Shown piece after piece: positions 3,001 to 6,000 of a DNA stretch of 64,000 bases; the stretch's first letter is position 1; each line of letters begins with the position of its first letter. Position numbers: made by a program. The stretch lies in assembly GCF_002854065.1 (NCBI RefSeq), contig NZ_CP024152.1, one strand, 5' to 3'. The stretch is from Escherichia coli (lineage in GTDB: Bacteria > Pseudomonadota > Gammaproteobacteria > Enterobacterales > Enterobacteriaceae).

Positions 3001-6000
3001 TTTTTATTTCCATATCATCACTTTGACTCAATCTCTCTAATTCACGAATGATGTTATCCGCCTGGCATCGACCTTCACCTAATGCATAGATCGCAGCAAG
3101 CGTAATGTCTTTTGATTTACTCTTCATCATTTCAAACAAGAAAGTATTAGCTATCGCAGGAGGCATGCTCATAATCAATCCTCTTCATGAAATAAACAAT
3201 GGCACTCACTTACAAACAGGAGTCCACTATCGCAAGCGACTCAACTTAGTAATATCTCTCAATTTGAATGAAAAAACCAGATGGCATGTGACAGGGAACC
3301 GTCCGCATGATGTCCGTGACCATTTAACCCCATAAACTGATAAAAAATGAATACCGGTATCTCAATGCGAAGAAATAATCTCCGTAGAATCCCCCATGAG
3401 AAAAATATCATATGGGAGAAAATCGCAATTATCACAGCCAGCGCATTCATTATTTTCGCTGTCTTCTGGCATTAATTATTTTCAACACAAAAAGGAAAAA
3501 ACAATGAATCTGGTAGACGCCTTTGTCAAAAAAGTAATATCCGGTCCATATGAAGAATATGGAAAATGGTGGATAGATGTTGAATACATTTCATGGGGTG
3601 TTCCCGGGAAAACAAGACTGATGTTTGAGTCAAAGGAGCAGGCACTGGAAGTTAAAGAAGGGTACAAATTTTTAACGTGAGATCTCTTTTTGTTAAAGGG
3701 CAGGAAGCGGTAACTCCCTGCCCTTAGTTACGTTTCCAGGCTTATCAGTCGACAAGTTCCCGGATCAGTTCCAGAACAGCAATCAGCGCGTTTGCAACGG
3801 CAACTACTGCCCTGAGAACGATGATTAACAGATTAATCATCCGCTTCTCCATCACTGGAGGAAATCACCGTTGCTTACTCTTACATTGCCTGTCACAACG
3901 GCACTTTCAGTGTTAGTTGAAAAGAGACTTCCTCCTGCCAGAGCACTGAACACAGCACCACCTGTTTGTTCAGCCAGGACTTAAAATCTTGCATCCATAG
4001 TCCCGATGGATATCACGGCAGAAGTGTCGCCAGACAGAGCTAACCTGCGGATTATAAGGATGGTTGCTATCAAATGAACAGCTCGCTATTATAAGAACGT
4101 TAGTTGAAAAGAGATTTCCTCCGGTCAGGGCCACCCACTCTGTAACGGAACAGTAAAAAAACCGACCTCACCAGTCGGTTTTTTTACATCTGTTGTTTCT
4201 CAAAATCCGCCCAACATGCCCGTCACACCGGGGAAACTCATGCTCTGAATCAGAACCAACCATCTCAACTTTGCCGTCTCCTGAAAAAACTGGCACATTC
4301 AGTTCGATAACTACCCATAAATACAGAGAGAAAATCCGATGTCAGAAAAGTGGAGTAAAGAATTCGACTCTTGCTTTCAGGTGGGGAGCATAGAAGAAAT
4401 TGCAGATGCTCTCGAGAAACGCAGCGGAAGCGAGGAAAATGCGTTAGCCATGCTGGCAATGACAGCCTTCACACTCATGACCCGACGTGGTATCTGCGAA
4501 ATGCAGAACGTGGCCCCCGATGGCAAAGGCATTCGGCTGGAGCTAATCGGCTTCAGGGAAAATGAAACAATACCGGATACGCTTCATTGAAGAAGAAAGG
4601 GCGCAATGAGGTCAGCCTTCGCAACAAAGCGGCGGCAGAAAACCTGCCGCCGTGTTGCCCGTTAACGTTTAACTTCGTAGGCTAACGTTGCCACAAGCAC
4701 TGTGTTTCCCTGCTGGAGCCGGAGTCCGCAAAGCGAATCCCTCACCATCCAGACAAAACACAGAATCGTCACACAGATGACGATTAACATCATTAAAAAC
4801 GTTCGCTGTGGCATCATAGCCCCTCCATTGCCTTACGGCGGTTATCGGGCTACTATAATGTTGTCTAGGCATTACAGTAGAGCCCTTGGTTGATTGATAA
4901 AAAAATCTCCAGGGGCTTTCTGCTGTATATGGTTTAGTTAACAAAGAGAGCCAGTGTTCCACTGAGCAAAACCAGTAGCTATTCATGCTTACAATTATCT
5001 TCTCCATATCTGAAATAACTCAAACAGCCCAATAGAAACATATTGTTACATCTAAGATCTTGAAAAGACCTCTTTGAGAAATCAATATGAGATCACGGTA
5101 TGTTGATAGGATAATATATATGAAGAAACTATTGATTCGATTAATACCTGATGCAATATATGAGGCTCTGGAAAAGACAGCTCTGCATTCTGAACGCTCC
5201 CTGGAAGCACAGGCCAGATATATCCTTAGTTGCTCCGTAGATAATGAAAAACAATTAACTGGTGGTGAACGCTATCAAAGAGAAATAACCGCGCGTCTTA
5301 ATCAAGCGTTATCAGAAGCTAATGAGGTCATAACAGCCATTAATCTTGTTCCCGCAAGAATTGCAGAACAATTAGGCCATCATGACGCCATAGAATCCGA
5401 AAATTGGTTCACCGGAAATGCTGTTCCTAGCTTTACAGAGCTTGACGAATTAAGCGATATCTTTGGATGCTCTCCAGATTGGTTAAAGTTTGGCGAAAAT
5501 GTACCTTATCCAAAGAGTTCTAAAGGAAGGATAAACTGGAATCGTGGCGGAGAAAAAGATATCGATGCACTTTTAGAGCCTGACAACAAAGGTCGTAAAG
5601 TCTCATCTATTCATATTTTCAGGGTAAATGAATCTGGCAATATACTAATACTGAGAGAATTTGAAAACAGCATAACTACAGATTTTTTCTCAACAAACCT
5701 TTACTTATCAGACAAAGAAAAAATAGGACAGGGCGGATTCCACGACCTGGTCGATTTCCTTGTAATTTTACAATCCCTTTATTTAAAATATATAAATAGC
5801 AATCTGTTAGTGAAAAGCTATAACATTAGCCAATATGTACTGGATTCCTGTTATAAGAGCGGAGAAAAGCACCCCATAACTATATGTAGTGCAGGTGAGA
5901 CAAGTACCTGGTGGGAAGACATATGGCATGAAGACATGATAGCTCAATCGAGGAATAATGAGTCCTACTTCTGGGATGGTGACAAACCTCTTATTGATAG

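Follow-up and report, generated by a model that had tools for sequence, protein, structure and literature searches.

The 64-kb window analyzed here (the whole stretch of Escherichia coli plasmid DNA, NZ_CP024152.1) contains, within its transfer region between excA and trbA, a short minus-strand gene, a divergently oriented candidate small RNA (sRNA) on the opposite strand and a set of mutually complementary elements between them (Table 1). The original prediction, made from sequence alone, had proposed a 31-codon minus-strand open reading frame with a GGAG Shine-Dalgarno (SD) motif 5 nt before the ATG and a CCTCC anti-SD directly 5' of that motif. All of these are present, the anti-SD pentamer at 3861-3857 (-), with the correction that the spacing between the SD and the start codon is 6 nt. 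Likeness to DinQ had also been claimed for the peptide, and profile searches specify the relationship: the product matches NCBIfam NF041473, "DinQ-like type I toxin DqlB", with 67 bits (cutoff 35) over its full length (peptide residues 1-31 on profile positions 1-31), and a 36-aa form from an upstream GTG matches only via residues 6-36. The score against DinQ proper (NF041472) is 20.7 bits, below the cutoff of 30; judging from these profiles, the 31-aa peptide is a member of a sister family and not DinQ itself. DqlB has the shape of one short hydrophobic helix whose C-terminal tail carries charges (GRAVY 1.89 overall and 2.5 over residues 1-23; charged residues R10, E24, R27, E28 and D31), and it is identical at 25 of 31 positions to the homologues of IncL/M (pOXA-48 group) and IncX3 plasmids. 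The same DNA is annotated as dqlB in RefSeq (WP_001303310.1) and is found in R64 as well as in hundreds of plasmids of the IncI complex, with copies at least 99% identical in ~480 PLSDB plasmids and ~310 E. coli RefSeq records. The hairpin 3' of the gene, whose stem shows compensatory changes with respect to dinQ, is likely a terminator shared by dqlB and the convergent ORF 3505-3680; on the minus strand, no T run follows it.

Table 1. Features of the dqlB locus and its neighborhood (positions in the 64-kb window)
Feature	Position	Strand	Basis and remarks
dqlB CDS	3745..3840	-	31-codon ORF, product MINLLIIVLRAVVAVANALIAVLELIRELVD; read from sequence and translation
SD GGAG (element 4)	3847..3850	-	Read from sequence; aligns with dinQ SD at G184-G187
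Element 3 / anti-SD, GAUUUCCUCC	3857..3866	-	Inverted repeats I1, I6; same sequence as sRNA positions 14-23
Element 2, GGAGGAAGUC	3935-3926	-	Inside predicted AgrB target site
Predicted AgrB target site in dqlB 5'UTR	3912..3944	-	33-nt direct repeat of sRNA 5' end; contains element 2
Element 1, CGACACUUCUGCC	4016..4030	-	5'-proximal; complementary to element 2; RNAduplex -19.0 kcal/mol
dqlB promoter and start (predicted)	4044..4078	-	-35 TTCATT 4078-4073; -10 TATAAT 4056-4051; +1 G 4044
dqlB 3' hairpin	3696..3725	-	Inverted repeat I4; alignment to dinQ terminator hairpin
sRNA promoter TTGCTA-17-TATTAT (predicted)	4064..4092	+	Promoter scan, 9/12 consensus matches
AgrB-family antitoxin sRNA (predicted), ~88 nt	4100..4187	+	Rfam RF02891, fold, terminator scan
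sRNA intrinsic terminator (predicted)	4153-4187	+	Scan; 14-bp stem followed by T run
Hok/Gef gene of pndCA (locus 4662-5029)	4662-4817	-	~0.8 kb from dqlB locus
sok-family RNA	4812-5029	-	Rfam 74.9 bits

On the plus strand, an sRNA of ~85 nt had been anticipated, following a sigma70-like promoter and ending in a hairpin and a T run. Promoter and terminator scans recovered both signals, and the RNA predicted between them, of ~88 nt, scores 55.3 bits against the Rfam AgrB model RF02891 (gathering score 40), covering model positions 1-84 of 84; by this match it belongs to the AgrB family of Rfam. The predicted 88-nt RNA folds at -27 kcal/mol (z = -3.3), and its MFE and centroid folds agree on a 5' tail of 20 unpaired nucleotides, a stem-loop and the 14-bp terminator. 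Several other Rfam matches were discarded as sub-threshold, namely a minus-strand AgrB match (4153-4248, 21.7 bits) and an RNAI match, both due to the palindromic terminator only, and an OrzO-P match (33.6 bits, gathering score 60) that involves mostly the terminator. As a separate observation, the AgrB-like sRNA passes the Rfam threshold yet is unannotated in the RefSeq plasmid records examined.

The sRNA promoter is divergent from, and overlaps, the putative promoter of dqlB. The latter had been proposed as a minus-strand TTCATT/TATAAT pair and was found exactly there, with a spacer of 16 nt; the promoter scan did not report it because its -35 hexamer matches only 3 of 6 consensus positions. 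Its -10 box and the +1 (GTTAGCTCTG) at 4044 align exactly to K-12 dinQ and are kept in the other loci compared. Moreover, the alignment with K-12 dinQ covers the -10 box, the +1, blocks of the 5'UTR, the SD, the coding sequence and the terminator, that is, the whole transcript. The claim of a DinQ/AgrB-like type I toxin-sRNA module is thus borne out by membership in the DqlB and AgrB families and, beyond similar logic, by alignment-based homology to dinQ-agrAB at the DNA level over the entire transcript.

The 5'UTR of dqlB contains a direct repeat of the sRNA 5' end. A 24-nt element had been described as occurring twice on the plus strand; both copies exist, with 23/24 identity, copy 2 exactly as described (4099-4122) and copy 1 shifted by one position (3912-3935), and the repeat in fact reaches 33 nt (3912-3944 and 4099-4131, 29/33 identity). 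With up to three mismatches allowed, the 24-mer pattern occurs exactly twice in 64 kb, against an expectation of 0.00 from 100 shuffles. The further claim that copy 1 lies within the toxin 5'UTR and is complementary to the sRNA agrees with duplex prediction, in which the sRNA tail pairs with the 5'UTR at 32/33 positions counting G·U pairs, with a cognate duplex of -53.8 kcal/mol. Duplex energies were computed on 36-nt recognition segments, an unrestricted RNAduplex run on the complete sRNA and mRNA having been dropped for its over-extended, meaningless duplex. Across loci, cognate duplexes range from -43 to -62 kcal/mol and most non-cognate ones from -14 to -42 kcal/mol; the non-cognate combinations with cognate-like energies are those of close relatives, namely the locus of the window with locus L004a on the one hand, and IncN, IncL and IncM with one another on the other. 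The recognition sequence varies among IncI1, IncB/O/K/Z, IncX3, IncX4, IncN, IncL, IncM and K-12, each sRNA always matching its own target, and this co-variation of sRNA and target spans eight plasmid groups. The sRNAs of the IncN, IncL and IncM loci, which the Rfam AgrB model missed, were recognized because they repeat the UTR target in direct orientation.

Agreement with the logic of agrB/dinQ, which had been suspected, can be made specific for the anti-SD: the arrangement fits the published four-element switch of DinQ (PMC5066626), which was demonstrated for dinQ by SHAPE and in vitro translation (PMC5066626), and all four of its 5'UTR elements are found here. Element 3 can pair either with element 2 or with the SD. 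Helix 2:3 is 91.6% paired over 11 loci, as against 46-63% in slid controls, with compensatory changes in 4 of 10 pairs, and a co-varying equivalent of element 1 exists in 11/11 loci. A 1:2 duplex is predicted for each of the 11 loci, the one considered here being the weakest of the family. Helix 3:4 shows no co-variation, a test that is uninformative in this case given that the SD and the anti-SD are nearly invariant. In the MFE fold of the full-length transcript the element 1 segment pairs with the SD, and modeling predicts that element 1 is the lock of this transcript. Blocking the sRNA site in silico pushes the SD into the anti-SD (3:4) hairpin at every 5' truncation tried; the SD then pairs with mRNA positions 185-188, with P(unpaired) of 0.00. 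Folding of the whole mRNA with 5' truncations of 0-100 nt yielded no clearly open SD, and the same holds for the +44 form of K-12 dinQ, which is open experimentally. Because it fails likewise for this K-12 form, the fold test is weak, and SD accessibility by whole-mRNA folding was dropped as a discriminating test; of these folds, we rely only on the closing of the 3:4 hairpin upon blocking of the sRNA site, which is robust.

Drawing on the work on DinQ and on the co-variation at these loci, we propose the following scheme for the switch. The promoter at ~4044 (-) would give a dqlB mRNA of ~350 nt with a 5'UTR of ~200 nt, and the divergent promoter 56 bp away would give the ~88-nt AgrB-like sRNA, whose single-stranded 5' tail is complementary to 33 nt of the UTR. 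In the full-length mRNA, the 5' element would lock element 2 and the SD would be paired, such that translation would not occur. Processing at the 5' end would allow element 2 to pair with element 3, the anti-SD, leaving the SD free for production of DqlB. Binding of AgrB to element 2 would release the anti-SD, upon which the SD hairpin would close, and the AgrB:mRNA duplex would probably be a target of RNase III as well. As long as the plasmid is present, the sRNA would hold the toxin off; once the plasmid is lost, the mRNA presumably outlasts the sRNA, and DqlB could then enter the inner membrane and kill the cell, resulting in post-segregational killing.

We consider it highly probable that the locus represents, on an IncI1 (R64-type) plasmid, the type I toxin-antitoxin system DqlB/AgrB, the plasmid sister family of dinQ/agrB. 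The module as such is already known and is ordinary, because the family has a name and a RefSeq annotation, its function has been demonstrated on other plasmids, and it is reportedly common on IncI1. The dql family was defined in 2016 (Kristiansen et al., PMC5066626). In 2025, post-segregational killing by DqlB/AgrB was demonstrated on the IncL plasmid pOXA-48 and on an IncX3 plasmid. The experiments on pOXA-48 showed toxicity, its relief by agrB, the effect of compensatory mutations in the base pairing, the essentiality of agrB in Tn-seq and killing when the plasmid was cured (PMC12365149); those on the IncX3 plasmid pOXA-484 showed toxicity along with plasmid stabilization (PMC12317039). The family is established and experimentally validated, and 67.4% of IncI1 plasmids reportedly carry dqlB (PMC5066626, PMC12365149, PMC12317039). 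Our literature search for IncI1-specific agrB work returned only the pOXA-48 survey, and none of the papers found tests the IncI1 allele (the agrB of PMC6207760 is a Staphylococcus quorum-sensing gene, an unrelated mention). For this allele, we infer transcripts, toxicity, RNA half-lives and stabilization by analogy with the homologues.

In comparison with the plasmid systems of pOXA-48 and pOXA-484, the locus has the same peptide family (NF041473), the same sRNA family (RF02891) and the same layout, with a divergent sRNA beside the toxin promoter, a 5'UTR target of ~33-35 nt, one sRNA copy and no agrA. It differs in the recognition sequence of sRNA and target, which is specific to the R64-type allele, and in its position, excA-trbA beside pndCA as opposed to repA-trbC in pOXA-48. 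With dinQ/agrA/agrB of K-12 (Weel-Sneve 2013, PMC3567139; PMC5066626) it shares the 1:2 / 2:3 / 3:4 switch, the sRNA fold and a trans-encoded, adjacent, divergent sRNA. In contrast, the peptide has 31 aa as against 27 in DinQ, its helix carrying an insertion of 7 residues, and starts with ATG instead of GTG; the LexA operator at the dinQ promoter has no counterpart at that of dqlB, and there is one sRNA here but two at K-12 dinQ. Heterologous dqlB/dinQ duplexes reach -31 to -34 kcal/mol, compared with -54 to -60 kcal/mol for the cognate ones. The pairs tisB/istR-1, zorO/orzO and shoB/ohsC likewise combine a long 5'UTR, an adjacent divergent sRNA pairing far upstream of the ribosome-binding site and a primary transcript that stays inert before 5' processing, but their sequences are not homologous to this locus.

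A second killer locus had been noted 0.8 kb away in the form of pndA, and we indeed find a Hok/Gef gene and a sok-family RNA at that distance. Like dqlB, pndCA is a plasmid type I killer with a small membrane toxin, an antisense RNA and mRNA folding and processing, whereas its toxin (Hok/Gef) and RNA (sok) families are unrelated to those of the dqlB locus. Furthermore, the antisense RNA of pndCA is cis-encoded and overlaps an mRNA with a mok-type leader ORF, whereas the sRNA of the dqlB locus is encoded in trans, with no overlap between it and the toxin transcript.

A separate observation, which may be new, concerns a sharply bounded recognition cassette of ~280 bp that exists as two common alleles in near-identical IncI-complex backbones. 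The cassette (~3840-4119) is made up of the target in the 5'UTR, the two divergent promoters and the 5' tail of the sRNA. Between R64-type and pEC00704_3-type IncI-complex plasmids the flanks are 95-100% identical and the toxin is identical, but the 280 bp are only 45-83% identical. Predicted cross-pairing between the two alleles amounts to -25 and -31 kcal/mol, weaker than that of AgrA:dinQ (-44.9 kcal/mol), which is itself non-repressing experimentally, and on these energies the alleles are predicted not to cross-react. One IncK2/Z plasmid bears one module of each allele type.

The homology to the LexA-regulated dinQ and the location of the locus in the transfer region, from excA to trbA, raise the question of whether dqlB encodes a stress- or SOS-induced membrane toxin like DinQ, affecting membrane potential, nucleoid compaction or conjugal recombination after DNA damage, as opposed to an addiction toxin. 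We regard this as unlikely. In the alignment, the dinQ box CTGTATGATTATCCAG corresponds to CCTTATAATCCGCAG here, and LexA control at the dqlB promoter was rejected because the CTGT half-site is lost. The sole CTG-N10-CAG within 3600-4400 is a weak LexA-like site, CTGTTTGTTCAGCCAG (CTGT-N8-CCAG, 3962-3977), the identical sequence of which scored HI 11.64 in the IncI1 plasmid pTF2 (PMC12211044); this favors SOS induction, but the score is weak and the site lies inside the 5'UTR, at +68 to +83 of the transcript, away from the promoter. In the proteome of pTF2, DqlB went undetected, and hence there is no evidence of SOS induction from that study (PMC12211044), whereas the plasmid homologues work as addiction modules. 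Some SOS input via the weak 5'UTR site is conceivable. Because the promoter LexA operator is absent and the sRNA is single, the locus probably functions constitutively in addiction and is not a toxin induced by the SOS response.

It is less probable still that this is a silenced or decaying copy, in which the toxin never attains an effective level and the locus hitch-hikes on the IncI1 backbone. The weak -35 hexamer and an SD predicted to be paired in every form folded would be compatible with such decay, and the adjoining pndCA, as a second type I killer, could make dqlB redundant. Against this, the ORF, the SD, both promoters, the terminator and the four UTR elements are intact, two different regulatory alleles encode the identical peptide, and the sRNA-target co-variation across groups requires selection on pairing. 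Least probable of all, in our estimate, is a main role in plasmid competition or in phage defense through abortive infection with stabilization as a by-product: the two recognition alleles, predicted to be non-cross-reacting, reside in near-identical backbones and a single IncK2/Z plasmid has both, and phage exclusion has been reported for other type I systems, hok/sok among them, but allele diversity is equally expected of addiction modules that must avoid neutralization by a competitor, and in the stretch examined the locus has no defense genes as neighbors.

In R64-type IncI1 plasmids, DqlB/AgrB and PndA/PndB thus form a set of two unrelated type I killer loci that lie within 1.3 kb, which bears on plasmid curing and other anti-plasmid strategies; curing of pOXA-48 needed AgrB in trans to avoid killing (PMC12365149). 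With respect to the two alleles, we tentatively suggest, as a possibility to which we give somewhat less than even weight, that the antisense recognition module is a swappable specificity cassette, exchanged by recombination and selected to escape cross-neutralization by competing plasmids. If this is the case, addiction specificity would be an evolvable trait in plasmid competition. The observation of the two alleles could open the way to direct tests of how specific the addiction modules of competing IncI-complex plasmids are and how far they cross-talk.

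Both components of the locus almost certainly belong to described families, the toxin to DqlB and the small RNA to AgrB. The 31-codon toxin ORF of the original prediction is present on the minus strand, its translation (MINLLIIVLRAVVAVANALIAVLELIRELVD) agrees with the peptide proposed, and it covers all 31 residues of the NCBIfam profile NF041473 ("DinQ-like type I toxin DqlB") with 67 bits (cutoff 35); against the profile of DinQ proper it scores 20.7 bits, under the cutoff of 30. The plus-strand RNA 4100-4187 covers the full Rfam AgrB model RF02891 (55.3 bits; gathering score 40) and folds in an AgrB-like manner, with 20 free nt at the 5′ end followed by a stem-loop and a terminator (−27 kcal/mol, z = −3.3). 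These matches, together with homology to dinQ, bear out the proposal of a DinQ/AgrB-like type I toxin-sRNA module.

Alignment of the minus strand of the window (4060-3690) with the dinQ region of E. coli K-12 shows that the dqlB locus is homologous to chromosomal dinQ, beyond analogy. Conserved blocks span the whole dqlB transcript: the −10 box (TATAAT in the window, TATGAT in K-12), the shared +1 sequence GTTAGCTCTG, the blocks AAGTCCTGG, GGTGGTGC, TGCTCTGGC-GGAG, GTGACAGGCA-TG and GAGTAAGC, and the Shine-Dalgarno sequence (SD), start codon, ATCATCGTTCT and stop. In the published numbering, where the SD is G184-G187 (PMC5066626), dinQ +1 maps to window position 4044, next to the start anticipated at about 4043. 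The differences are that dqlB starts with ATG and dinQ with GTG, that the dqlB peptide has a 7-residue helix insertion, and that the window locus has one sRNA whereas the dinQ system has agrA and agrB. Moreover, the dinQ LexA operator (CTGTATGATTATCCAG) overlaps the −10 box, whereas its window counterpart, CCTTATAATCCGCAG, has lost the CTGT half-site. The sole CTG-N10-CAG of the region is a LexA-like sequence, CTGTTTGTTCAGCCAG (3962-3977), which falls in the dqlB 5′UTR (+68 to +83) and outside the promoter; on the IncI1 plasmid pTF2 the same sequence was rated a weak candidate SOS box (HI 11.64), and DqlB was undetected in that study's proteome (PMC12211044).

With respect to translation initiation, the minus strand upstream of the dqlB ATG reads ...GATTTCCTCCAGTGATGGAGAAGCGGATG. 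The CCTCC anti-SD was correctly placed just 5′ of the SD, and GGAG does precede the ATG, with a spacing of 6 nt rather than the 5 nt first given. An upstream in-frame GTG (3855) and ATG (3852), at minus-strand 3850-3855, overlap the SD and would yield products of 36 and 35 aa. These longer forms are unlikely, since in K-12 and IncX3 the equivalent ATG lies in another frame and in IncX4 none was found, and the DqlB family profile begins at the 3840 ATG.

Scans recovered both the sigma70-like promoter and the hairpin with T run predicted to bound the sRNA, and the divergent minus-strand promoter is present with a 16-nt spacer; the consensus promoter scan did not report the latter, its −35 matching just 3/6 consensus positions. 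A 12-bp hairpin at 3696-3725, between the convergent ORF 3505-3680 (+) and dqlB, aligns with the dinQ terminator, with compensatory changes in the stem; on the minus strand it is not followed by a T run, and it is a putative dqlB terminator. An OrzO-P antitoxin family match at 4120-4185 (+) scores 33.6 bits, below the threshold of 60, and is owed mainly to the near-identical terminator AACC..CCUCACCAG..GGUU; it may merely reflect a terminator type common to divergent type I antitoxin sRNAs.

Features of the dqlB-agrB locus and of the two modules of the IncK2/Z plasmid CP056610.1 (L004)
Feature	Coordinates	Strand	Remark
dqlB ORF	3745-3840	-	31 codons
SD GGAG (element 4)	3850-3847	-	6 nt 5′ of dqlB ATG
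CCTCC	just 5′ of GGAG	-	read from sequence
Element 3, GAUUUCCUCC	3866-3857	-	sequence of sRNA positions 14-23
Element 2, GGAGGAAGUC	3935-3926	-	within sRNA target
Element 1	~4030-4016	-	dqlB 5′UTR
dqlB −10, TATAAT	4056-4051	-	read from sequence
dqlB −35, TTCATT	4078-4073	-	read from sequence
sRNA promoter, TTGCTA-17-TATTAT	4064-4092	+	consensus scan
sRNA terminator	4153-4187	+	scan; 14-bp hairpin + T run
L004 dqlB	72-167 and 756-851	-	
L004 AgrB matches	429-516 and 1158-1245	+	

The 24-nt repeat linking sRNA and target has exactly two copies in the 64-kb window, with none expected by chance (100 shuffles); its second copy lies at 4099-4122 as described, and the first at 3912-3935, one position from the 3911-3934 originally given. 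The repeat extends to 33 nt (29/33 identical); as RNA, three of the four mismatches pair as G·U, which brings the duplex to 32/33 pairs. The recognition sequence varies among plasmid groups, namely GTTAGTTGAAAAGAGA in the window, GTCAGTTATAGACAGT in the IncI1/B/O plasmid NZ_OP378630 (L003), GTTAGGTGTAGAGTGA in IncX4, GTCAATTGTTT... in IncN/L/M and GTTAGATAAGAACTCT in K-12, and each sRNA matches its own target. Cognate duplexes range from −43 to −62 kcal/mol (window, −53.8) and non-cognate ones mostly from −14 to −42, with cognate-like energies between close relatives (the window and one L004 module; IncN, IncL and IncM among themselves). Cross-talk with the chromosomal system is predicted to be negligible, since the duplexes of the window sRNA with dinQ (−34.1 kcal/mol) and of K-12 AgrB with window dqlB (−30.6) are predicted to be weaker than that of AgrA with dinQ (−44.9), which pair without repression in experiment (PMC5066626).

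In the DinQ model, full-length RNA forms helices 1:2 and 3:4 among four UTR elements, closing the SD; removal of the 5′ end lets 2:3 form and opens it; and AgrB binding to the element 2 region closes 3:4 again, with RNase III cutting the duplex (PMC5066626). All four elements are found in the window locus, and because element 3 has the same sequence as part of the sRNA, the sRNA would compete with it for element 2. Across 11 loci (window, K-12, IncI1/B/O, the two IncK2/Z modules, a Salmonella diarizonae plasmid, IncX3, IncX4, IncN, IncL and IncM), helix 2:3 is 91.6% paired, against 46-63% in slid controls, with compensatory changes at 4/10 pairs and a mean energy of −17.2 kcal/mol for cognate versus −11.3 for non-cognate combinations. 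A co-varying 1:2 duplex is predicted in all 11 (window, −19.0 kcal/mol, weak for the family), and helix 3:4 is near-invariant, hence uninformative on co-variation. Constraining the sRNA site to be occupied leaves the SD paired with the anti-SD at every 5′ truncation (P(unpaired) = 0.00), as in dinQ; folding of 5′-truncated dqlB left the SD not clearly open, a non-discriminating test given the same outcome for dinQ +44, shown by SHAPE to be open. We propose that dqlB most likely runs on a DinQ-type switch, closed by 1:2 and 3:4, opened by 2:3 and re-closed by the sRNA.

Kristiansen et al. (2016; PMC5066626) defined the dql family (dqlA, dqlB), with the same UTR elements, on Enterobacteriaceae chromosomes and natural plasmids. 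For pOXA-48 (IncL), work from 2025 showed that DqlB is toxic and is rescued by agrB through base pairing (4-nt mismatch and compensatory mutant), that agrB is essential by Tn-seq, and that the locus is behind killing on plasmid curing; it also found dqlB on 67.4% of IncI1 plasmids and 83.2% of those of IncB/O/K/Z (PMC12365149). The IncX3 locus is toxic and stabilises a test plasmid (PMC12317039); our literature search found no experiment on the IncI1 allele. The window locus is very probably a functional addiction module acting via AgrB and the anti-SD switch.

DNA identical to 501-601-nt stretches of the locus is found in R64 (NC_005014), ~480 PLSDB plasmids and ~310 E. coli RefSeq records. 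The ORF is annotated there as "dqlB: DinQ-like type I toxin DqlB" (WP_001303310.1). The listed RefSeq records of E. coli plasmids with this same DNA show the dqlB CDS alone under the match, with the sRNA unannotated. The locus is thus a member of an already known family and the original prediction a correct identification of it, as the family is described and annotated and the peptide shares 25/31 residues with those of IncL/M and IncX3 that were compared.

The locus sits in the IncI1 transfer region. On one side of dqlB are traY, excA, a small HEAT-repeat ORF and a hypothetical ORF; on the other, another hypothetical ORF, a Hok/Gef (pnd) gene and trbA. A pndA-like Hok/Gef-family ORF of 51 aa (4662-4817, −) and a sok-family RNA/leader match (4812-5029, −; 74.9 bits, gathering score 59) agree with the anticipated pndA and, judged by sequence, constitute another type I killer, unrelated to dqlB and 0.8 kb away from it. 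Elsewhere, a repZ regulatory pseudoknot (47569-47717, −; 194.5 bits) marks the IncI1 replicon, and a C4 antisense RNA family match (48570-48657, +; 77.5 bits) lies ~850 bp from it.

Comparison of the window with L003 reveals a sharply bounded stretch of ~280 bp (window 3840-4119, L003 852-1138) that is just 45-83% identical, whereas the flanks (3400-3839 and 4120-4680) are 95-100% and the dqlB CDS 100% identical. This stretch coincides exactly with the UTR target, both divergent promoters and the 5′ recognition tail of the sRNA. In PLSDB each allele is common (at ≥95% identity, ~510 records match the window core and ~563 the L003 core), and cross-pairing between the two is predicted to be weak (−25 and −31 kcal/mol). 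Furthermore, of the two tandem dqlB-agrB modules of L004, one carries a window-type and the other an L003-type recognition sequence. The divergence looks as if a specificity cassette had been exchanged by recombination, and such exchange would be the sole part of the locus with some potential for novelty.
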